Virus record (IMG/VR): IMGVR_UViG_3300049020_000042
Location: 1 to 53,968 of that record
Strand: one strand, 5' to 3'
DNA from: a virus
Taxonomy: Duplodnaviria; Caudoviricetes
Length of the DNA: 53,968 nucleotides
How positions within the stretch are numbered: the stretch's first letter is position 1; each line of letters starts with the position of its first letter. Position numbers and translations under genes: made by a program. The notes beneath the pieces were generated by a model, which saw nothing but the letters and a program-made list of their open reading frames with translations, had not been told where the DNA came from and did not search any database. Shown one piece after another: positions 2,901 through 49,676 of this stretch.

Positions 2901-3302
2901 ATGATTCCACAACCATTCATTGTTTCGAATTTTAGAGTGCGATTCATGTCGATGATTGGTGTGCTCACAGATGATTTCAAAACGATGTCATCGCAAGTTA
3001 CTGGAGTGGATCAATTTGATCTGGCCGTTGAACAGGGTGGCGATTTGATGGTCAACATCAGACAAGATGACAAGGGTGTTGTTTTTCGTGAACTGACTAG
3101 ATTCATGGCTTCTGCAAAGGGAGATTCTGATTGTTGCATCATCATCGAACAACTTGATACAAAAAGTGATGACATTCGAGTGAAACTGAAATTCAGTAAT
3201 TTGAATTGCAAACTGACGTACCAGAAATTGAGATATGCAGTCCTAGATGCTCATCAACTTAATTTGATGATTGCTTACAAATCATGGGAATTGGTAAATT
3301 AG
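2901..3302 (+). CDS. divergent tail-tube-fold protein
   Basis: NFRVRF, SSQVTG, VNIRQDD, IIIEQLDTKSDDI and LNLMIAY collinear with tube KFRVRV, SQQVMT, IELRDD, YLETLDGGNDTI and ISLEVRY. Confidence 0.6.
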   Translation: MIPQPFIVSNFRVRFMSMIGVLTDDFKTMSSQVTGVDQFDLAVEQGGDLMVNIRQDDKGVVFRELTRFMASAKGDSDCCIIIEQLDTKSDDIRVKLKFSNLNCKLTYQKLRYAVLDAHQLNLMIAYKSWELVN

Positions 3303-3314
3303 AAGATAAATAAT

Positions 3315-3436
3315 ATTGTAAGCATCACGAGGATGCTTACAATGGTGATAGTTGATTTAACTAGGGTGGCATCGCAATGATACGTCCTTCCATAACATGA
3401 GGTTATGGTAAATTTTCGCAATATGAGGTTGCAAAA
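3315..3436 (+). promoter_or_regulatory. structured folE 5' leader (three AYGAG-loop hairpins)
   Basis: Stems 3315-3343, 3390-3408 and 3413-3436 with loops ACGAG/ATGAG/ATGAG; the last holds the SD; TAAATA at 3307. Confidence 0.6.
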
Positions 3437-3437
3437 C

Positions 3438-4115
3438 ATGAGCTACAATAAGAATAAATGTGATCCAGAGTTGGGCAAAGCAGTCCAAGCACACTTGGAA
3501 AAGTTGGGTCTCCACACCCCCATGTCCACCAATACCCTGAATGCAAAGCAAAAGATCGCCAAGATCGAAAAGCACATGCAGGGTATCATGCAAACTTTGG
3601 GACTGGATCTCACTGACGACTCCTTGATTGAAACGCCTATTCGCGTTGCCAAGATGTACGTCAACGAGGTATTCTGGGGTCTTGATCCAGAAGCATTCCC
3701 CAAATGCACCGCAGTAGACAACAAGATTTCCTATGATGAAATGGTAGTTGAAGAAGACATTACTGTGATGTCAAACTGCGAACACCACTTCGTAACCATC
3801 GACGGCTTTGCCACCGTAGCCTACTTGCCCAACAAGAAGGTCTTGGGTCTGAGCAAGATGAATCGCATCGTGGAATACTTCAGCAAGCGCCCACAGATTC
3901 AAGAACGTCTAACCGTTCAGATCGCCGAAGCACTCAAGTTTATTCTTGACACTGAGCATGTGGCCGTTCTCATTAACGCATCACATTATTGCGTGAAGAG
4001 TCGTGGTGTTGAGGATACAAACTCCCACACTATTACTAGCCACCTGAGCGGCAAGTTCAGGGAAGACGCTTTGGTTCGTGGTGAATTCATGGCACTGGCC
4101 ACCAGACGCAAGTAA
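3438..4115 (+). CDS. folE: GTP cyclohydrolase I
   Basis: ETPIRVAKMY, CEHH, GLSK, RPQIQERLT and HYCVKSRG; start at ATG 3438 after GAGG. Confidence 0.97.
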   Translation: MSYNKNKCDPELGKAVQAHLEKLGLHTPMSTNTLNAKQKIAKIEKHMQGIMQTLGLDLTDDSLIETPIRVAKMYVNEVFWGLDPEAFPKCTAVDNKISYDEMVVEEDITVMSNCEHHFVTIDGFATVAYLPNKKVLGLSKMNRIVEYFSKRPQIQERLTVQIAEALKFILDTEHVAVLINASHYCVKSRGVEDTNSHTITSHLSGKFREDALVRGEFMALATRRK

Positions 4116-4135: not shown

Positions 4136-4172
4136 GCCCTCAGATAAATATTCCTTTATCTGGGGGCATTTT
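4136..4172 (+). promoter_or_regulatory. hairpin containing late promoter TAAATA and sequestering the RBS; possible folE terminator
   Basis: 13-bp stem 4136-4148/4155-4167; TAAATA 4145-4150; GGGGG in 3' arm; ATG at 4174. Confidence 0.65.
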
Positions 4173-4173
4173 C

Positions 4174-4668
4174 ATGGCTGTACTACAGGGCAGGAGTCCT
4201 AAAACAACATTTGCCAATCTTCTTACTGTAGAGGGAGGATTGACCGTATCTTTGACGCCGGTAGAGAGTGGTGGGGGAAAAACAACCCCATTGAAGCTTT
4301 CAACCACTTCGATTTCAATTCACGATTTAACTTTTCCATCCACAGGCGTAGCCGCTGGTAAGGTACTGACTATCTCTGCTGATGGTCTATCCATGGAATG
4401 GAAAACACCTGCGGCAAGTTCAGGTGGCGGGGGTGGTGGAACAGTTCTGGAGACCGAAGCCGACGCGATCTATTACGAATACAACGATGATGAAGTCGTG
4501 AGTGTGATGACTGAGCATTTTGGTTCTGAGACCAGAGTAACCACCTATAGCTACAGCGTAACTGGCAAGGTGGACACTATCACAATCGAATATTTGGGTC
4601 AAACTCGAATCGAAACTTACACATACATCAACGGCAAAGTGACCTCTATGGTTGCTTCTTCTCTTTAA
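4174..4668 (+). CDS. tail-fibre-associated structural protein
   Basis: GKVLTISADG..EWK fibre-type motif, Gly linker, YD-like repeats; late promoter. Confidence 0.6.
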   Translation: MAVLQGRSPKTTFANLLTVEGGLTVSLTPVESGGGKTTPLKLSTTSISIHDLTFPSTGVAAGKVLTISADGLSMEWKTPAASSGGGGGGTVLETEADAIYYEYNDDEVVSVMTEHFGSETRVTTYSYSVTGKVDTITIEYLGQTRIETYTYINGKVTSMVASSL

Positions 4669-7399: not shown

Positions 7400-7867
7400 A
7401 TGACAATTCCAAAACTTATCTACACTCACGACAGCATGGCTCGTGATTTACATTCCATGTACCGCACAATGCACCTCGAGGGCTTTAAGCCTGATGTGGT
7501 GGTTGGTATCACTCGTGGTGGACTCATCCCCAGCGTTTACGTCAGCCATTACTTTGATGTTGATTTGGTAACAATCAACGTGAGCTTTCGAGACACGAAG
7601 GTTCTTGAGCCAACGACTGAAATCGAGGAACTGCTCAAAGCTGGCAGAACCATCTTGCTGGTTGACGACATTTGTGACAGCGGTGAAACCCTTGAATTCA
7701 TCTATAACCAGCTGCAACAAACGGTGCCTGATCGTCTTGATACACAAATGAAGACCGCGGTACTTATTCATAACGAAGGCTGCCAAACCTTCACGCCTGA
7801 GTATTCCGGTACTACAATCAATAAATCGGAACAAGACGTTTGGGTGTGCTTTCCTTGGGAACAGTAA
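7400..7867 (+). CDS. purine phosphoribosyltransferase (Gpt-like, type I PRTase)
   Basis: VGITRGGLIP, LLVDDICDSGET PRPP loop, WVCFPWE; TTGGCT-17-TAAAAT upstream. Confidence 0.9.
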   Translation: MTIPKLIYTHDSMARDLHSMYRTMHLEGFKPDVVVGITRGGLIPSVYVSHYFDVDLVTINVSFRDTKVLEPTTEIEELLKAGRTILLVDDICDSGETLEFIYNQLQQTVPDRLDTQMKTAVLIHNEGCQTFTPEYSGTTINKSEQDVWVCFPWEQ

Positions 7868-7875
7868 TCTACACA

Positions 7876-8517
7876 ATGTATCAGATACGAAACTTGATCA
7901 ATGACAAGCTCTATATCGGTTATACGAAACAAGAGCCCATCAGCTATATCAGGAATCATTTCCGAAGAGCAAGGCTTGGTGAAGATCCCAACAAGTTGCT
8001 CTTCAAAGCCATTTTGAAATATGGTGAAGATGCGTTTGAGGTGACTTTGATTGCACAAACCACTGAAAAGGCAAACGCAACGTATCTTGAGAGATTCTTT
8101 ATTGGTGATCGTAATAGCCATGCAGTGTCAGGACATGGGTACAATTTGACACTGGGTGGTGATGGCGGAGATACTAGTCAATCGCCGAACTATAAAGCTG
8201 GTATAGCTAAAAGAGATCTTCGAGGTGAAAAGAATGGCAACTGGGGTGGATTCTCTGAGGATCACAAGAAAAACCTGAGTGCCGCAAAAAGAGGAAAGAG
8301 ACCCAAGAGTTGTGATGTTTGGTCAAAAGCTGCTACTGGCAAAATTTACCTTCACGATGCAATAAAAATGATTGAGAAAAGAGTTCACCCTGATGAAGCC
8401 ACCCAATTCAAGAATAATGGCTTCGTTCTTGGGAGACTGAAGTTAGAATGTAAAATCTGTGGCAAATATGCTGACGTTTCGAACCTGAAGCGCCACCATA
8501 GACACGATGAACAATAA
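7876..8517 (+). mobile_element. free-standing GIY-YIG homing endonuclease
   Basis: YQIRNLINDKLYIGYT, GYNLTLGGDG and NUMOD3-like SEDHKKNLSAAKRGK. Confidence 0.85.
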
Positions 8518-8523
8518 GGATCA

Positions 8524-9552
8524 ATGATGGCAGAAAAACAATATCAATATTCCGAAATTTTCGGAAACACAATTCAGGGTGAAGGCCAATATACCGGTGT
8601 ACCAACCGTTTGGGTTCGCTTCTGGGGCTGTAACCTAAATTGCAACGGCTTCGGACAGACTGACCCCACCGACCCAAGCTCATGGATCTTGGATTATCAA
8701 ACGATTGATATTTCGTCCATCACCAAGATGGAAGATCTGCCAGTATTCAATCGCGGTTGTGATTCATCCTACAGCTGGTCGAAGAACTATGCTCACTTGG
8801 CCCACAAAGCCACTGCGGCCGAAATCTGCGATAAGCTGGAAGCGTTCATGAAGAACGAACACAATCCAGAAGGAAAGTTTCTCCACCCCAAGAGTAAGCA
8901 GTGGCAACACATGGCTTTTACTGGCGGTGAGCCCATGATGTCCCAAAATGCCATCGTGGACATCATGTTGGAATTCGCCAAGAGAAACAACGTCCCCAAG
9001 TATGTGACAGTTGAAACAAACGGCACCCAGAAAGCTCGTGACAAAATCAGTGACTACATCAGAGGTTACCCGGTAACTGATGATGCTCAAGTCGAATTGT
9101 TCAATCAAGATTTTGACTATGAGAAAAGCTTCTACATGGCTGGTAAGATTTGGATGAATTCAGAATCACTGATCGGTTTAACTCCTGAGCTGGAAGCTCT
9201 CAAGGGTGTTGAATGGTTCTGGTCAGTCAGTCCCAAGTTGTTCCTGAGTGGCGAAACATGGGAAGACGCAATCAAACCAGAAATCGTGGCATCATATAAA
9301 GAGCTCAGCAATGCTGGTCAACTCAAGTATGTGAGTGATGGTTCACAGCGTTCATGGGATGAAATCGAGAAAGCGACGGCATTGTTCCGTGAAGCTGGGG
9401 TGAACTGGAAAGTATGGGTGATGCCGGTCGGTGCCACTGTAGATGGTCAGAATTTGGTTGCAGCGAAGGTGACTGAAGAAGCGGTTGCTCGCGGTTATAA
9501 TGTTGCGGCAAGAGTTCACGCTTACATCTTCCAAAATATCATTGGCCGTTGA
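8524..9552 (+). CDS. queE: 7-carboxy-7-deazaguanine synthase (radical SAM)
   Basis: SEIFGNTIQGEG, RFWGCNLNC, GCDS, FTGGEP, VETNGT, SVSPKL and RVHAYIF. Confidence 0.93.
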   Translation: MMAEKQYQYSEIFGNTIQGEGQYTGVPTVWVRFWGCNLNCNGFGQTDPTDPSSWILDYQTIDISSITKMEDLPVFNRGCDSSYSWSKNYAHLAHKATAAEICDKLEAFMKNEHNPEGKFLHPKSKQWQHMAFTGGEPMMSQNAIVDIMLEFAKRNNVPKYVTVETNGTQKARDKISDYIRGYPVTDDAQVELFNQDFDYEKSFYMAGKIWMNSESLIGLTPELEALKGVEWFWSVSPKLFLSGETWEDAIKPEIVASYKELSNAGQLKYVSDGSQRSWDEIEKATALFREAGVNWKVWVMPVGATVDGQNLVAAKVTEEAVARGYNVAARVHAYIFQNIIGR

Positions 9553-10381: not shown

Positions 10382-10712
10382 CAGTATCGTCATCAGTTCC
10401 GAACATTTCAAGCTGAGTAGTTCAGTGTTGCGAATGCATTACGATAGAATAATTCCGCTAAAGGGTTTTATATCGAAATCAGGATCGTTTTGCTCAATGG
10501 ATGAATATCCGGCAAATCAAATCGTCATATCTATGGACCCCCAAGCCCAAGAAAGCCTACATGAAGAATTGATATCAGACCGGATTGTTGGTATCTTCTT
10601 GCAAGAGAACACCGGGATAGTGGTTGAATATGAGACCGAATCACAAGCATGTATGGCCGCATTGGAATTCAAGGAATATTTGAGAAATGAAAAAGAAACC
10701 AATCCTAAGTGA
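10368..10712 (+). CDS. small protein, divergent FExxxDxxxFKL-motif family
   Basis: IVVEYETESQACMAAL. Confidence 0.6.
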   Translation: MNPDNSIVISSEHFKLSSSVLRMHYDRIIPLKGFISKSGSFCSMDEYPANQIVISMDPQAQESLHEELISDRIVGIFLQENTGIVVEYETESQACMAALEFKEYLRNEKETNPK

Positions 10713-22515: not shown

Positions 22516-22532
22516 CGGGATAAATATCAAAA

Positions 22533-23108
22533 ATGGAGGTTGCTATGGATTTGAGTATTCATGTTGGAGGAGACACACTGGTTTTGAACAGTGATGGTCT
22601 GCCTTTGGATATCATTCCCATTAGCACCGTGAGCTGGCGTGATGCCATTAAGGCTCAATACCAGGGCAATATCGACGTCTTGCATCACTATAGTGATTGG
22701 GTTGTTCGCAGCCCCAGTGTGGAGCTTCAGGTGCCATCGGTCATCATGATGCGTCAATGGGTTAAAATGGGTAGGAGAGTAAAGTTCTCCAGACGAAACG
22801 TGTACATTCGTGACCGTTTCACATGTCAGTATTGCAATGAGGTTTTCCCTCATGATGAACTGACTATGGATCACGTCGTGCCACGACTGGAAGGTGGTAA
22901 GACCGTCTGGAATAACATCGCTTCTGCTTGCAGCCCATGCAATCATGAAAAGAGTCACTTCAGCAAGATGAAGCCCAGGAATGCACCACGTAAGCCATCG
23001 TATGGTGAAATGTTGGCAATCCTGCGTACGAGCAAAATCACCATCCGTGATCCAGCTTGGAACTTCTACTTGGGATGGCCTGAACATTTAGTCACCATTC
23101 AACGATAA
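22533..23108 (+). CDS. HNH endonuclease (McrA-like)
   Basis: RDRFTCQYC, TMDHVVP and WNNIASACSPCN; TAAATA at 22521; true start may be 22545. Confidence 0.9.
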   Translation: MEVAMDLSIHVGGDTLVLNSDGLPLDIIPISTVSWRDAIKAQYQGNIDVLHHYSDWVVRSPSVELQVPSVIMMRQWVKMGRRVKFSRRNVYIRDRFTCQYCNEVFPHDELTMDHVVPRLEGGKTVWNNIASACSPCNHEKSHFSKMKPRNAPRKPSYGEMLAILRTSKITIRDPAWNFYLGWPEHLVTIQR

Positions 23109-39175: not shown

Positions 39176-40603
39176 TCAGAGACGAAGACGCCAAAATCCT
39201 GGATGGTATTCACCGTCAATAGCCATAATCCAAGTTCCATCAGTGAACTTCAGTTGCTTTCCGCTTCTAAGGTTCACCAAATAATGAACTGTCGTTGTTG
39301 TGCTGGCATCAAAGTCTATCGACCATCTGCCATTCCTGAACTCGATGATATCCCCTGCTTGGGCTGAGAATGGTGCACCGTTGGAATCCTGAATGTCACC
39401 CAACTTGTTTGACAGAGTTCCCCAAGCGATGGTTCTTCCCAAGTCTTCCAAGAGCATGTAACGTTGTCCTTCGGCTTCTGCTGGTAGAACCCCTTCACGA
39501 TTGCCATTCAGATCACTCAATGGAAAGTGCTTCATAGGATCAATGATTGCATCTACGGGGGCTTGTGTGTTACCCGGGAGTGTGTCTGGATCAACTTGCC
39601 AATGAATGACGTTGGGTCTTGATGGATCCAAGTTCAGAGTTCCAATGATGTCAAGGTCGATGTCTTGTTCAATATCAGCTCTCAGTCTCAACTGACTTTC
39701 ACCAGCACGGAATGGACCGTACGGCTTCAAGAGATCTTCCCAACTCATTAAATTACCATTGATATCGGTCTCAAGTCCTTTCACAGCAAGTAACGTGATC
39801 TCATCACCAGATATCCTGATTCGAGCATTCTTCGGAGTAACTATAACCCTAGACATTAAGGCACTTGAATCCATTTGGATCTCGTTGTCACCCAATCTAT
39901 CAGGCTTGCCCTCAAACTCACCCTCAAGAATATTGGTGACGATTTGATGGATAAGCTTCTGTTGTTTGACCTTTGCCGGAGGGGTAATCCAAACTGGCAA
40001 TTTGAAAACAAAACTGGCTACGTCGATTTCTTCATTCGTCCCTACTGGAATGTTCCTTGATGACCATGTCGTGGATTCAAGTTCAACCCTAGTAAGAGCA
40101 GTCCAGTCAATGGGGTTCTCACTGCTTTGAATATCAAAGCCGATATTGAACGCCATGTAGACTTGCTCCCACAATTGATGCTTCTGGTGTTCGTTGGAGG
40201 TCCAGAGATCAACCTGAAGTGTGATATCAAGTGGGTGTGGCATTTGTCTTTCGACTGTGTATCCGTTGCCACGTTCACCGGTATAGTTACCATTAGAATC
40301 GATTGCTCTCTCAGTCACCTGTACGGTTGATACGTGGCTGGGGTTCTGCGTTCTATTTCTGTTGGGTGACATTTCTTTCACCCATATGGTGAACATAGGA
40401 ACACTCAGAATTGAGTTCTCACTGTTGTTCTTCATAATGTGTGCGACTTGTCTATTCTGATTTGCCATCCTACATGGTACGGTACGAAGAGTTGGCGGTC
40501 CACCATCTCTCCCACCAACCATGTATTGGAAACCAGTAAAGGCTCGAACGAACTGCGTCAGAAATCTTCTGATTTGTGAATCATAAAAATAGTCATAGGA
40601 CAT
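39176..40603 (-). CDS. tail terminator / sheath stabiliser (gp15-like) with C-terminal extension
   Basis: YFYD.QIRR, VP, PHP, QKHQL.EQ...FN and WITPPAKVK. Confidence 0.75.
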   Translation of the reverse strand: MSYDYFYDSQIRRFLTQFVRAFTGFQYMVGGRDGGPPTLRTVPCRMANQNRQVAHIMKNNSENSILSVPMFTIWVKEMSPNRNRTQNPSHVSTVQVTERAIDSNGNYTGERGNGYTVERQMPHPLDITLQVDLWTSNEHQKHQLWEQVYMAFNIGFDIQSSENPIDWTALTRVELESTTWSSRNIPVGTNEEIDVASFVFKLPVWITPPAKVKQQKLIHQIVTNILEGEFEGKPDRLGDNEIQMDSSALMSRVIVTPKNARIRISGDEITLLAVKGLETDINGNLMSWEDLLKPYGPFRAGESQLRLRADIEQDIDLDIIGTLNLDPSRPNVIHWQVDPDTLPGNTQAPVDAIIDPMKHFPLSDLNGNREGVLPAEAEGQRYMLLEDLGRTIAWGTLSNKLGDIQDSNGAPFSAQAGDIIEFRNGRWSIDFDASTTTTVHYLVNLRSGKQLKFTDGTWIMAIDGEYHPGFWRLRL

Positions 40604-41198
40604 CTGGTTTCTTTTTCCGGTTAGTGTTGCCTTTTAATTTATCAGCAATCTTCTGTTTTGTTTCTTCTGTCCGAACCCAACTAGACATTTTGGATTTCGC
40701 TTCATCTGAACGAGTCTGGCCTTTTAACTTTTCAACTCTTTTTGCAATCCATTCAGGGTCCTGCTTTTTCCCTAACATATGATTACTTTTTCCTCTTAAG
40801 TGTTCGTGAAGCTTAGTCATAGCTTCCTTTTTTCGCTCACTTTTCTTTAAAGATTCTATTAAATTCGCTATATGCTCAGGAGTTTTTGCCTGTCCTTTCA
40901 GTCTAGACGAGATATATTTGGCATGTTCTTTTCTGAGCCATTCATAAGTTTTGCCATTTATTCGAACATCCGCCTTGTTCGTCATGAACCAAAATGCATG
41001 AATCATCGGGCCACCATGTATCCTAGCCAACAACCAATGAGCTATAAAGTGTTCTCGTGCAGTCAAATCAACCAAGTTATTAGCATCATCACTTCCGCCC
41101 ATTGAGCGAGGGACTATGTGATGTGATTCTTTATACGAAGTGAGAATTCGATCTTTGGCTTTTTCAATAAGCCTTGAATAATGATTTTCGTAATTCAT
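40593..41198 (-). mobile_element. free-standing HNH homing endonuclease with NUMOD3-like repeats
   Basis: ESHHIVPRSMGG, NLVDLTAREHFIAHWLL; SDEAKSKMS and TEETKQKI. Confidence 0.9.
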
Positions 41199-42751: not shown

Positions 42752-42771
42752 TATTTATATGTCAATAAATA
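42752..42771. promoter_or_regulatory. divergent T4-type late promoters
   Basis: TATAAATA on - (42759-42752) and TAAATA on + (42766-42771) between the neck genes. Confidence 0.7.
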
Positions 42772-48556: not shown

Positions 48557-49057
48557 ATGAACCAACCAATCAACTACAAATTTGTATCCACGAAAGAATA
48601 CGTGGATGCCTATCCTGTCGCCTATCGCCAGTGGCGTGCTGACAGTCATTGCAATCTCATCCATGGATATTCCTTCTCAATGAAGTTTTATTTCGGGACC
48701 AACGACCTCGATGTTCGTAACTGGGCAGCCGACTATGGCGGCCTCAAGGAACTCAAAGGCATCCTGAACGACATGTTTGATCACCGCCTACTGGTTGCTG
48801 AGGATGATCCTGAGCTGGCCTTCTACAAGGAAATGGAAGCTCGCAAGCTGGCAAAGCTGACGATCTTGCCACGACTGGGTTGCGAGGGTCTGGCCGATAT
48901 GCTGTACCGTTATGTGAACTCGGTATACATTCCAGATATGTGGGGCCAAGCTGAAGCAGATCGTCTGTGGTGCTTCCGTGTTGAAGTAAGGGAAACCCAA
49001 GCCAACATGGCCTATCGTGAAGGCCATCGTGAATGGAATGAGGACTTGATTGGATGA
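48557..49057 (+). CDS. queD: 6-carboxy-5,6,7,8-tetrahydropterin synthase
   Basis: SHCNLIHGY, DYGGLK, FDHRLL, GCE and VEVRET. Confidence 0.9.
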   Translation: MNQPINYKFVSTKEYVDAYPVAYRQWRADSHCNLIHGYSFSMKFYFGTNDLDVRNWAADYGGLKELKGILNDMFDHRLLVAEDDPELAFYKEMEARKLAKLTILPRLGCEGLADMLYRYVNSVYIPDMWGQAEADRLWCFRVEVRETQANMAYREGHREWNEDLIG

Positions 49058-49248: not shown

Positions 49249-49656
49249 TCATTTCTTTTCCGCTCTTCTCTTTTCCGCCCTGGCACCAGCCTCCAGGGCG
49301 GTTTTTGCCTTATGGCATGGAACGCATAACGTTTGGAGATTGGGTAATTGCCAAAACGTTAGATCACCCTGAGCTTCAATCAATGGCTGGATGTGATCCA
49401 GATGCCAACCGTGATTCCGTCTCTCACATTGAGTTCCGCAGGAACGACAGACTCCCTTATCTCTTTTCCACACAACCTTTCTGGCCTCACTGGGCCAGAA
49501 CATAAGTTGATATTCCTTAACGCAAGCTGGATGCCATCTTGCTCTTGATTCCTTGCCAGTCCTAGTAAGACCAATGGCTTGATTGCACCAACGGCATGTT
49601 CCAACCGGAGTGCAATCAAAGTGAGGGGGAAGTGGTGGTTTTCTATGAGCGCTCAT
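49249..49656 (-). CDS. HNH endonuclease with N-terminal Zn finger
   Basis: CRWC, RDKGVCRSCG, LDHIQP and NLQTLCVPCHKAKT. Confidence 0.88.
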   Translation of the reverse strand: MSAHRKPPLPPHFDCTPVGTCRWCNQAIGLTRTGKESRARWHPACVKEYQLMFWPSEARKVVWKRDKGVCRSCGTQCERRNHGWHLDHIQPLIEAQGDLTFWQLPNLQTLCVPCHKAKTALEAGARAEKRRAEKK

Positions 49657-49676
49657 TGGGGATATTTATCCCCAAT
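49655..49676 (-). promoter_or_regulatory. hairpin with late promoter TAAATA, covering the start codon
   Basis: ATTGGGGATAAATATCCCCAAT(G) on - strand. Confidence 0.6.

Follow-up and report, generated by a model that had tools for sequence, protein, structure and literature searches.

The gene folE, which encodes GTP cyclohydrolase I, is preceded in the virus record IMGVR_UViG_3300049020_000042 by an enlarged form of a previously undescribed conserved mRNA leader, found before folE in one group of uncultured T4-like phages, which probably controls both the lifetime of the message and its translation. The whole stretch of DNA that was analysed, 53,968 nucleotides of a T4-like myovirus fragment with an estimated completeness of 12%, is called the window below. 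In the window, the leader consists of a T4-type late-promoter-like box, a hairpin directly after the box (hairpin 1) and two further hairpins (hairpins 2 and 3), the last of which carries the Shine-Dalgarno (SD) sequence of folE. The finding is carried by 29 related leaders, in which the stem of hairpin 1 covaries, in which its loop is more conserved than any stem position, and in most of which the loop sequence occurs a second time at the ribosome binding site.

Three Hairpins Ahead of folE

The start codon of folE (ATG, 3438-3440) is separated by 135 nt from the stop codon of the upstream open reading frame (ORF; 3300-3302), and the features found in this gap and around folE are collected in Table 1. 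An earlier note, made from the letters of the window, had described three hairpins here with AYGAG loops closed Y-G, and folding together with shuffled controls confirms all three, with the closing pairs C-G, C-G and U-G. The fold of hairpin 1 has a free energy of −15.8 kcal/mol (z score −8.2), and none of 200 shuffled sequences folds as well; the corresponding values are −6.6 kcal/mol, −3.6 and 0 of 200 for hairpin 2, and −4.2 kcal/mol, −1.96 and 10 of 200 for hairpin 3. The last of them had been drawn as a bulged stem over 3413-3436. Its five-pair core stands, but the bulged UUUU/AAAA extension, which can be drawn, is absent from the minimum-energy fold. A weaker fourth stem, which had been placed at about 3363-3388, has to be given up, as it folds no better than shuffled sequence (−3.9 kcal/mol, z score +0.16, 113 of 200 shuffles as good). 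With the exception of this fourth stem, the three-hairpin observation is real.

Table 1. Positions of the folE leader, its parts and the features that follow it in the window
Feature	Position	Strand	Description
Late-promoter-like box, T4 type	3305..3312	+	GATAAATA; just upstream of hairpin 1
Hairpin 1	3314..3344	+	12 perfect pairs (3315-3326/3332-3343) plus U-G (3314/3344); loop ACGAG (3327-3331), closed by C-G
Linker	3345..3389	+	aligns to gaps in all relatives; contains the claimed fourth stem (3363-3388)
Hairpin 2	3390..3408	+	CCAUAAC-AUGAG-GUUAUGG; 7 pairs (3390-3396/3402-3408); closed by C-G
Hairpin 3	3418..3432	+	GCAAU-AUGAG-GUUGC; 5-pair core (3418-3422/3428-3432); closed by U-G
folE (GTP cyclohydrolase I)	3438..4115	+	225 aa, N-terminus MSYNK; Pfam PF01227, E 3e-61
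Terminator-like hairpin after folE	4136..4167	+	13 pairs, then ATTTTC; −19.3 kcal/mol, z score −5.4

In the predicted ensemble of an RNA that spans positions 3318-3475, none of the three closing pairs has a probability below 0.90, and each loop base stays unpaired with a probability of at least 0.96. The SD sequence GAGG (3425-3428) is made up of the loop of hairpin 3 and its 3' closing base, and when the loop is unpaired, GAGG is exposed 9 nt upstream of the ATG at 3438. The proposal that the third hairpin presents the SD sequence just before the start codon is thus borne out, with the coordinates right and the loop predicted to be open. Hairpin 2 lies 30 nt from the same ATG. Hairpin 1 is separated from the promoter box by 1 nt, and its 3' arm contains neither an SD sequence in use nor an AUG. 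When an RNA starts at position 3318, hairpin 1 keeps 9 bp (−11.2 kcal/mol) and stands at the very 5' end.

That hairpins of this kind should gather in one leader is not due to the frequency of the word YAYGAGG, which occurs 17 times in the window as compared with 23.4 expected, i.e., without enrichment. Hairpins with an AYGAG loop and at least five pairs number six on both strands of the window, and three of the six are in the folE leader. The triplet pattern is unusual: when the window and 153 related loci (1.4 Mb, both strands) were scanned for three non-overlapping pentaloop hairpins within 125 nt, with loops differing by at most one base, two matches were obtained, the window leader and an A-rich one in locus L143.

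A Late Promoter Box and the Predicted Transcript Start

T4-type late promoters were recognised by an 8-bp box, TATAAATA or a sequence close to it, which precedes the start by roughly one turn of the helix and is not accompanied by a −35 element. Excerpts of PMC2988020 place the T4 box TATAAATA at −13 to −6 and describe variants at −13 and −12 in T4 relatives, and a variant NATAAATA is given for cyanomyoviruses in parts of PMC2984593. The box ahead of hairpin 1 is such a box, and the boxes in the related folE leaders are NATAAATA or GCTAAATA. Boxes of this kind also precede virion genes in the window. The word ATAAATA occurs nine times, each time ahead of an ORF-opening ATG, and the genes behind it include those of the tail sheath (36637, minus strand) and the tail tube (32677, minus strand). 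The distance from box to ATG is 6-31 nt for eight of the nine words, and 92 or 125 nt for folE.

When the T4 geometry is applied to the window, the folE transcript is predicted to start at G3318, the sixth nucleotide after the box and four bases inside the 5' arm of hairpin 1. Transcription from a T4-type late promoter is the best explanation for the window leader, and the hairpins then lie within the leader, downstream of the most likely promoter, as the earlier note had assumed. A late sigma factor of gp55 type (phrog_234, E 5e-22) was found in one of five related records, the 263.7-kb record G001, which is the most complete carrier of the leader. The sole contig from an RNA library spans 3459-3675, inside folE.

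Some other late boxes of the window deserve mention. At 42752-42771, two ATAAATA boxes on opposite strands face away from each other with 6 nt between them, and a virion gene starts 22 nt after each (42729 on the minus strand, counted by hand, and 42794 on the plus strand), which looks like a divergent pair of late promoters. In two other cases just 6 nt separate the ATAAATA box from an ATG: the box at 49663-49669 (minus strand) precedes an HNH endonuclease gene (start 49656, minus strand), and that at 22520-22526 (plus strand) precedes the ORF at 22533. With the geometry known from T4, the late RNAs from these two boxes would be leaderless or nearly so.

A Family of Related Leaders

The 29 distinct folE leaders that share the design of box and hairpin all come from uncultured phages of one FolE clade; the set was completed by two further scans, seeded with loci L078 and L080. 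In this family, a TAAATA box is followed after 1-9 nt (median 4) by a hairpin of 5-13 bp, which is perfect in 27 leaders and has one mismatch in the other two. The loop is ACAACG in 12 leaders, ACAAAG in nine, AAGAG in three, ACGAG in two (the window and L167) and AAAACG, ACAGCG or ATAAAG in one each, and in all 29 it is closed by C-G. This design is shared by the leaders of FolE relatives at 63-72% identity. The stem word TGTAAGCA of hairpin 1 in the window is common to L161, L169, L171 and L180, and the window is therefore a member of the family by sequence as well as by layout. In most of the related folE genes the start falls on the corresponding Met-Ser codons (typically MS[YFL][NQ]), though some depart from this.

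The earlier note had proposed covariation among the folE leaders of related phages as a check, and for the stems of hairpin 1 the outcome is strong. Hexaloop and pentaloop hairpins were aligned separately, and a first core alignment by MAFFT was dropped because the gap fell within the 3' arm. The hexaloop set comprises 24 hairpins (20 distinct), with 94.2% of the cells paired and with changes on both sides in five of the six pairs, in 28 cells; one stem pair appears as AU, UA, CG and GC. The covariation score is 0.596, to be compared with 0.197 ± 0.037 for shuffled sets, none of which reached this value in 500 trials, and with at most 0.152 for slid controls. In the five pentaloop hairpins all cells are paired (100%) and four of six pairs covary, and an earlier set of seven hairpins gave a like picture.

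The stems thus vary and keep their pairing. In the hexaloop set, neither the closing C and G nor the loop positions A1, A3 and G6 vary at all, and for C2 and A4 conservation is 90% or more. The observation that differing stems carry matching loops, which had been made on the window, is true there and extends to the family, where different stems carry the same C-G-closed loop. In 13 leaders of subtype a, the 34 nt before the ATG are 88% identical, as compared with 54% at the third codon positions of folE, and from this follows that the leader is under strong purifying selection.

Covariation also bears on the suggestion that the inverted repeats act in DNA, either as operators at the late promoter for a dimeric DNA-binding protein or, with no function as RNA, as recombination scars that a mobile promoter cassette left behind. 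In favour of this, a perfect 12-bp palindrome stands in hairpin 1 beside a promoter box, and on both strands within it a sigma-70-like TTGTAA-16-TACAAT can be made out; the differing genes upstream of the box in relatives imply that the unit of box, leader and folE has moved, and two 9-nt repeats, TGGTAAATT and TGCTTACAA, lie beside the element or overlap it. What the relatives conserve, however, is the pairing and not the sequence of the half-sites, with all four Watson-Crick types at one pair and with G-U tolerated; the stem varies between 5 and 13 bp around a fixed part that is an asymmetric centre, all of which is typical of a hairpin formed in a single strand, and the sigma-70-like hexamers are absent from relatives. 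A role in DNA fits the data poorly, and we give it almost no credence.

The distribution of the leader follows the FolE phylogeny. In a midpoint-rooted tree of 114 distinct proteins, the smallest clade with all 27 strictly scored carriers has 35 tips (support 0.93). Eight tips of this clade count as 'non-carriers'; two of them are the leaders whose hairpin has one mismatch, and a third, L079, bears another kind of 5' hairpin. Many related folE genes come directly after the upstream gene, without a leader. The genes upstream of the box differ between related contigs, and the unit that is kept is therefore box, leader and folE.

The window and the 153 loci contain 462 distinct TAAATA contexts, of which 42 are followed by some hairpin and 11 by a hairpin with C-G closure and an A...G loop; all 11 of these are folE leaders. 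In the 263.7-kb relative G001, CACAAMGG occurs five times, twice in the folE leader and three times with no ORF start following. At two further places in this record (locus L283; 143722 and 151258), TAAATA boxes are followed by C-G-closed hairpins with loops AGTAG and ATTCG, ahead of genes, and these phages may more generally place a 5' hairpin on their late leaders. In the scanned sequence, a 5' hairpin as such is not special to folE, but the loop of the folE leaders is. No further copy of the loop motif, such as a regulon would have, was found in the leaders of G001 or in the window, and in the 3-kb flanks of five relatives the motif was not found at other ribosome sites, with the exception of L005. 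There (3167-3186), CACAAAGG stands 5 nt before the ATG of the gene after folE, the sole such case in the flanks examined.

Relatives are found among environmental records. When close relatives of the window leader were sought by blastn in 50,697 phage records, the folE coding part alone matched (78 records, 60-80% identity), and the subtype-a leader gave no blastn match in the same records; nor did the folE leader match cultured phages in the phage collection. The folE leader of KVP40 has a different layout, a terminator hairpin followed by CAATGAGGAAATAGAATG. In IMG/VR and the metagenome set, identity to the best FolE relatives is 68-72%. A covariance model (R1) built from seven hexaloop hairpins was set aside as too sequence-bound, since it missed the window, L078 and L080; in 556 kb it gave 12 matches, which were the training sequences and duplicates, plus one at E 6.7 in L079. 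The related loci contain no homologues of the ORFs that precede folE in the window, so the upstream gene is of no use for finding relatives. In a second soil sample, contigs over 3321-3471 are identical to the window, and a contig from a fourth run (3142-3347) has three differences, one of them listed outside the hairpins.

A Second Site at the Ribosome Binding Site

The sequence of hairpin 1 that consists of closing pair and loop recurs, with at most two mismatches, at the ribosome site in 19 of the 29 leaders. In 18 relatives the recurrence lies at −12 to −20 from the ATG, and in the window it lies at −42. In subtypes a and a', hairpin 1 has CACAAMGG, and the ribosome site has CACAAAGG or CACAACGG at −17 to −20; the ribosome-site hairpin of these subtypes, AACCAUC-ACAAAG-GAAGGUU, forms in the predicted ensemble, and its 3' arm holds part of the SD sequence. 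In subtype d (L078, L080 and L156), AAGAG in hairpin 1 is accompanied by ATAAC-TGGAG-GTTAT, which abuts the ATG. The loop types of the two sites accordingly change in concert, with the combinations ACAAMG/ACAAMG, AAGAG/TGGAG and ACGAG/ATGAG in three subtypes. The exact pentaloop AYGAG, which had been taken for the shared element, is not the conserved unit, as most relatives have ACAAMG.

Hairpin 2 aligns with CCATCACAAAGGAAGGTTAT of subtype a and with the ATAAC-TGGAG-GTTAT of L078, L080 and L156. On this alignment, hairpin 2 is the homologue of the relatives' ribosome-site hairpin and thus the ancestral copy, which has probably become a relic or else serves as another site for the factor. An 11-nt direct repeat, AAYATGAGGTT (AACATGAGGTT and AATATGAGGTT, 26 nt apart), is common to hairpins 2 and 3, from which follows that they are related by descent and not independent events. 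Aligned in this way, hairpin 3 is a diverged tandem copy, which now carries the working SD sequence. As compared with hairpin 2 (ATAAC/GTTAT), its stem (GCAAT/GTTGC) has two double changes that keep the pair and one further change from C to U that leaves a U-G pair. The likeness of the two loops, for which the earlier note had offered binding by a common repressor, is in this case explained by descent, as tandem copies of the ancestral ribosome-site hairpin, and the comparison indicates that the three-hairpin pattern of the window arose by duplication of that hairpin.

Direct repeats of 9-14 nt crowd the region, which is consistent with an origin of the leader by local duplication. Two exact 9-nt repeats link the leader with the end of the upstream ORF. 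One, TGCTTACAA, is found at 3272-3280 in this ORF end and at 3334-3342 in the 3' arm of hairpin 1, and the other, TGGTAAATT, is found at 3292-3300 in the ORF end and at 3406-3414, just after hairpin 2. The long leader of the window may have arisen by insertions or duplications that left these repeats as scars.

The homology of hairpin 2 also bears on the reading of its neighbourhood. A consensus scan flags 3390-3408 as terminator-like (seven pairs, three of them G-C, and five T in the next eight bases), so that hairpin 2 followed by UAAAUUUU could be an intrinsic attenuator, where late transcripts stop when neither another fold nor a factor prevents it, or where a leader RNA of about 95 nt is produced. 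The flag is owed to the downstream TAAATTTT. The stem is weak, at the free energy given above, the U run is interrupted, the scan found four such sites when 1.8 were expected, which is not significant, and no competing anti-terminator fold is predicted. Furthermore, the homologous hairpin in L078, L080 and L156 abuts the ATG and cannot terminate. Attenuation fits the data poorly, and we consider it very unlikely. An intrinsic terminator at hairpin 1 was rejected too, since GGTGATAG and not a U run comes next.

A Candidate Mechanism and Its Alternatives

To see how these parts might work together, consider a late RNA that starts at the predicted position. Hairpin 1 would then be a 5'-terminal hairpin, at or within a few bases of the RNA 5' end, and it would shield this end from 5'-end-dependent decay. 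The matching loops would be recognition sites for one trans-acting factor, most simply a protein, and this follows from the consideration that a plain stabiliser needs no fixed loop. When the factor holds the 5' hairpin together with the ribosome-site hairpin or hairpins, it would set both folE translation and the life of the mRNA. In the window, hairpin 2 would be an old copy of the site, now too far from the start codon, and hairpin 3 a new copy that presents GAGG. What we infer here is the predicted start site, the stabilising role, the existence of the factor and the direction of control.

The part of this reading that needs no factor, i.e., a conserved hairpin on a late leader, where hairpin 2 is a relic and the work at the ribosome site has passed to hairpin 3, we hold with considerable confidence. 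For the whole, which includes a 5' hairpin that caps the mRNA and one putative factor that recognises the matching loops, belief and doubt are about evenly balanced. As in known operator hairpins, a conserved loop sits on a variable, covarying stem, and a site lies at or overlaps the ribosome binding site. In 5'-terminal stabilisers the hairpin begins within about 0-2 nt of the transcript 5' end, a position that hairpin 1 would have relative to the predicted +1, apart from some stems that extend 1-4 bp upstream of it. The multivalent operator of the earlier note survives in part, with the fixed loop, the covarying stems and the recurrence in 19 leaders in its favour, but three sites are found in the window alone and the relatives have two.

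A number of observations weigh against the proposed mechanism. When 11 leaders were folded with the T4 geometry, +1 coincided in most of them with base one or two of the stem, but in about eight leaders, including that of the window, the pairing reaches 1-4 bp beyond the predicted +1 on its upstream side. In these leaders, either transcription begins elsewhere than the T4 geometry gives, or the hairpin matters in read-through RNA too. At the threshold of two mismatches, the loop sequence does not recur in nine of the 29 leaders, which belong to subtypes b and c. L176 makes a tenth case, as its one recurrence, at −33, forms the loop of a middle hairpin and does not lie at the ribosome site. In L167, the loop is ACGAG and the ribosome site has ACAAAG. 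The statistical weight of the recurrence comes mainly from one or two lineages, and it is weak for the 7-mers with two mismatches. Other late leaders in G001 bear 5' hairpins with unrelated loops. With the best FolE match at 68-72% identity, the window leader has no close relative in the collections searched, which places covariation in hairpins 2 and 3 beyond reach. As to proteins, gp55 (phrog_234) was not found in the 54-kb window, which is estimated to be 12% complete; RegA (phrog_242) was found neither in the window nor in the 263.7-kb relative, both of them incomplete records; and domain and family scans showed no RNA-binding family among the ORFs of the window, again an incomplete record.

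The main rival explanation is that there is no trans-acting factor at all. Hairpin 1 would then be a 5' stabiliser and nothing else, hairpins 2 and 3 would do nothing but present the SD sequence, and the loops would match merely by descent and SD-like composition, hairpin 1 being an ancient copy of the ribosome-site hairpin with its SD-like purines and hairpin 2 a dead relic. The homology of hairpin 2 with the relatives' ribosome-site hairpin, the 11-nt repeat in hairpin 3, the crowding of direct repeats and the ten leaders where the loop does not recur at the ribosome site all agree with this. SD sequences presented in a hairpin loop are, in addition, a recurring arrangement in the phage of the window, where at least four other genes have it. 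As all the loops start with A and end with G, their conservation may have a structural cause, for instance an A-G pair on the C-G closure. Against it stands that a plain stabiliser has no need of a fixed loop, and yet the loop outconserves every stem position; that the loop type shifts in concert at both hairpins in three subtypes; that the motif was found at folE alone in the sequence scanned; and that the two double, pair-keeping changes between hairpins 2 and 3 point to selection on the fold itself. We regard a leader without a factor as possible, at a probability clearly below one half.

The other hairpins with the SD sequence in the loop are small (5-7 bp, with an SD-like AGGA or GGAA in the loop) and stand directly before the starts at 10687, 23542, 24955 and 49970 (minus strand).

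When the putative factor is retained, the question becomes what it is. The earlier note had named oligomeric FolE, which would bind a multivalent operator, repress its own translation and so limit the use of GTP. This is a special case of the operator reading and shares with it the fixed loop, the second copy at the ribosome site and the restriction to folE, and a folE-specific factor would most economically be FolE itself. The T4 proteins gp32, gp43 and RegA set a precedent for autogenous translational repression via leader RNA, according to the pertinent excerpts of PMC3014915. In contrast, FolE of the window is an ordinary protein with a single GTP_cyclohydroI domain (residues 43-220) and no added domain. 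Moreover, 79 of the 114 distinct phage FolE proteins are outside the leader-bearing clade and many related folE genes have no leader, so that RNA binding, if any, would be a gain specific to the clade. We know of no report of a GTP cyclohydrolase I that binds RNA, though no search aimed at one was made. Self-repression by FolE thus appears improbable.

Somewhat broader, and still a long shot, is the idea that the folE leaders form a new class of autoregulatory RNA operator, where a protein, possibly the decameric GTP cyclohydrolase I, reads C-G-closed A...G loops with sites at the capped 5' end and at the ribosome site. If this were true, a protein bridging two sites (three in the window) would shut off folE translation once there is enough enzyme, and the use of guanine nucleotides for deazaguanine or folate synthesis would be tied to late DNA packaging. 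Phage pathways to modified DNA bases start from GTP via FolE. Among the titles and opening lines of abstracts returned by full-text literature searches, none concerned phage control of the FolE step.

Irrespective of the factor, the motif is compact (55-120 nt), conserved, covarying and, in the scanned sequence, present at folE alone. The leader is thereby a well-defined candidate for a new control element, based on RNA and protein or on RNA and ribosome, in environmental T4-like phages.

Gene Content of the Window

The window encodes a tail sheath, a tail tube, a sheath stabiliser of gp15 type and a head-closure (connector) protein. Which pathway folE serves can be read in two ways. A link to deazaguanine synthesis is plausible from a QueD-like gene (ORF 48557-49057, which matches Pfam PTPS and the QueD-like PHROG family) and a QueE gene (8524-9552), and no QueC or DpdA was seen in the 54-kb fragment. 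A role in folate synthesis is equally open, as the window also carries genes for thymidylate synthase and dihydrofolate reductase. ORF 165-563 resembles QueD by eye, and its sole match is phrog_17812, a family of unknown function.

There are four genes of homing-endonuclease type in the 54 kb, at 7840-8517, 22533-23108, 40593-41198 and 49249-49656, one of them GIY-YIG and three of HNH type. The GIY-YIG gene lies between a phosphoribosyltransferase gene, which it overlaps by 28 nt, and the QueE gene.

Comparison with Known Systems

Cis-regulatory leaders before folE and deazapurine genes are known as the riboswitches THF-I, THF-II (the 'folE motif') and preQ1-I, II and III, and the preQ1-I riboswitch is similar to the present leader in having a small hairpin, an A-rich tail and an SD sequence. 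These riboswitches were rejected as explanations, as there is no Rfam match and a loop of 5-6 nt is too small for the known aptamer folds. A scan with Rfam 15, at E up to 10 for the window and up to 1 for five relatives, gave no relevant family, so that the possibility of a known family, left open by the earlier note, falls away; the best overlapping matches, none of them to a relevant family, score 15-27 bits when the gathering scores are 45-93. No complementarity between loop and tail was seen on inspection of the leaders. Sites of CsrA type (GGA in a loop), the GGAG of RegB and the GAG repeats of TRAP were considered as candidates and set aside on motif or spacing. Full-text literature searches on T4 late promoters and on folE and deazaguanine, supplements aside, gave reviews on T4 and genome papers, and no listed title or abstract opening referred to such a folE leader.

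The hairpin after folE has a known counterpart. Its 5' arm contains a second GATAAATA box (4143-4150) and its 3' arm contains GGGGG (4162-4166), which serves as ribosome site for the next gene (ATG at 4174). Read-through RNA would hide the ribosome site in this hairpin, and late RNA from about position 4156 would be without the hiding arm. This matches the leaders of T4 gene e, soc and I-TevI, where the late box lies in a hairpin that hides the ribosome site, as described in sections of PMC3014915. Hairpin 1 was rejected as a case of the gene e type, since its box lies outside and upstream, so that the late RNA keeps both arms, and since it holds no working ribosome site.

The proposed function of hairpin 1 is known from bacterial and phage messages. 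The 5'-terminal stem-loops of the Escherichia coli ompA and papA leaders protect from 5'-end-dependent decay of the RNase E type, and to our knowledge the known 5' stabilisers act independently of loop sequence. The RNA from the T7 promoter phi10 starts at +1 with the hairpin GGGAGACC-ACAAC-GGTTTCCC (L154, 22904-22924), and the likeness lies in the hairpin at the 5' start. A 10-nt word of the phi10 leader, CACAACGGTT, is common to hairpin 1 of L001, L004 and L144, which could be convergence or chance. That 5'-terminal stem-loops stabilise E. coli mRNAs is stated by titles in the reference list of PMC3997798. The folE leaders differ from the ompA, papA and phi10 stabilisers in that their most conserved part is the loop, which recurs at the ribosome site, and from phi10 also in having a promoter of T4 late type with a predicted start.

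Further parallels are the operators of gene 43 in T4 and RB69, gene 32 and RegA, where, according to the relevant portions of PMC3014915, one protein reads a leader hairpin and a sequence at the ribosome site. In the gene 43 operator, the same portions state, the loop bases are the conserved and recognised part. The loop there is -UAAC-, whereas the folE leaders have ACAAMG or NNGAG and show the loop two or three times. The gene 43 and gene 32 operators belong to early replication genes, whereas the folE leader would place a control of this kind on a metabolic enzyme expressed from a predicted late promoter.

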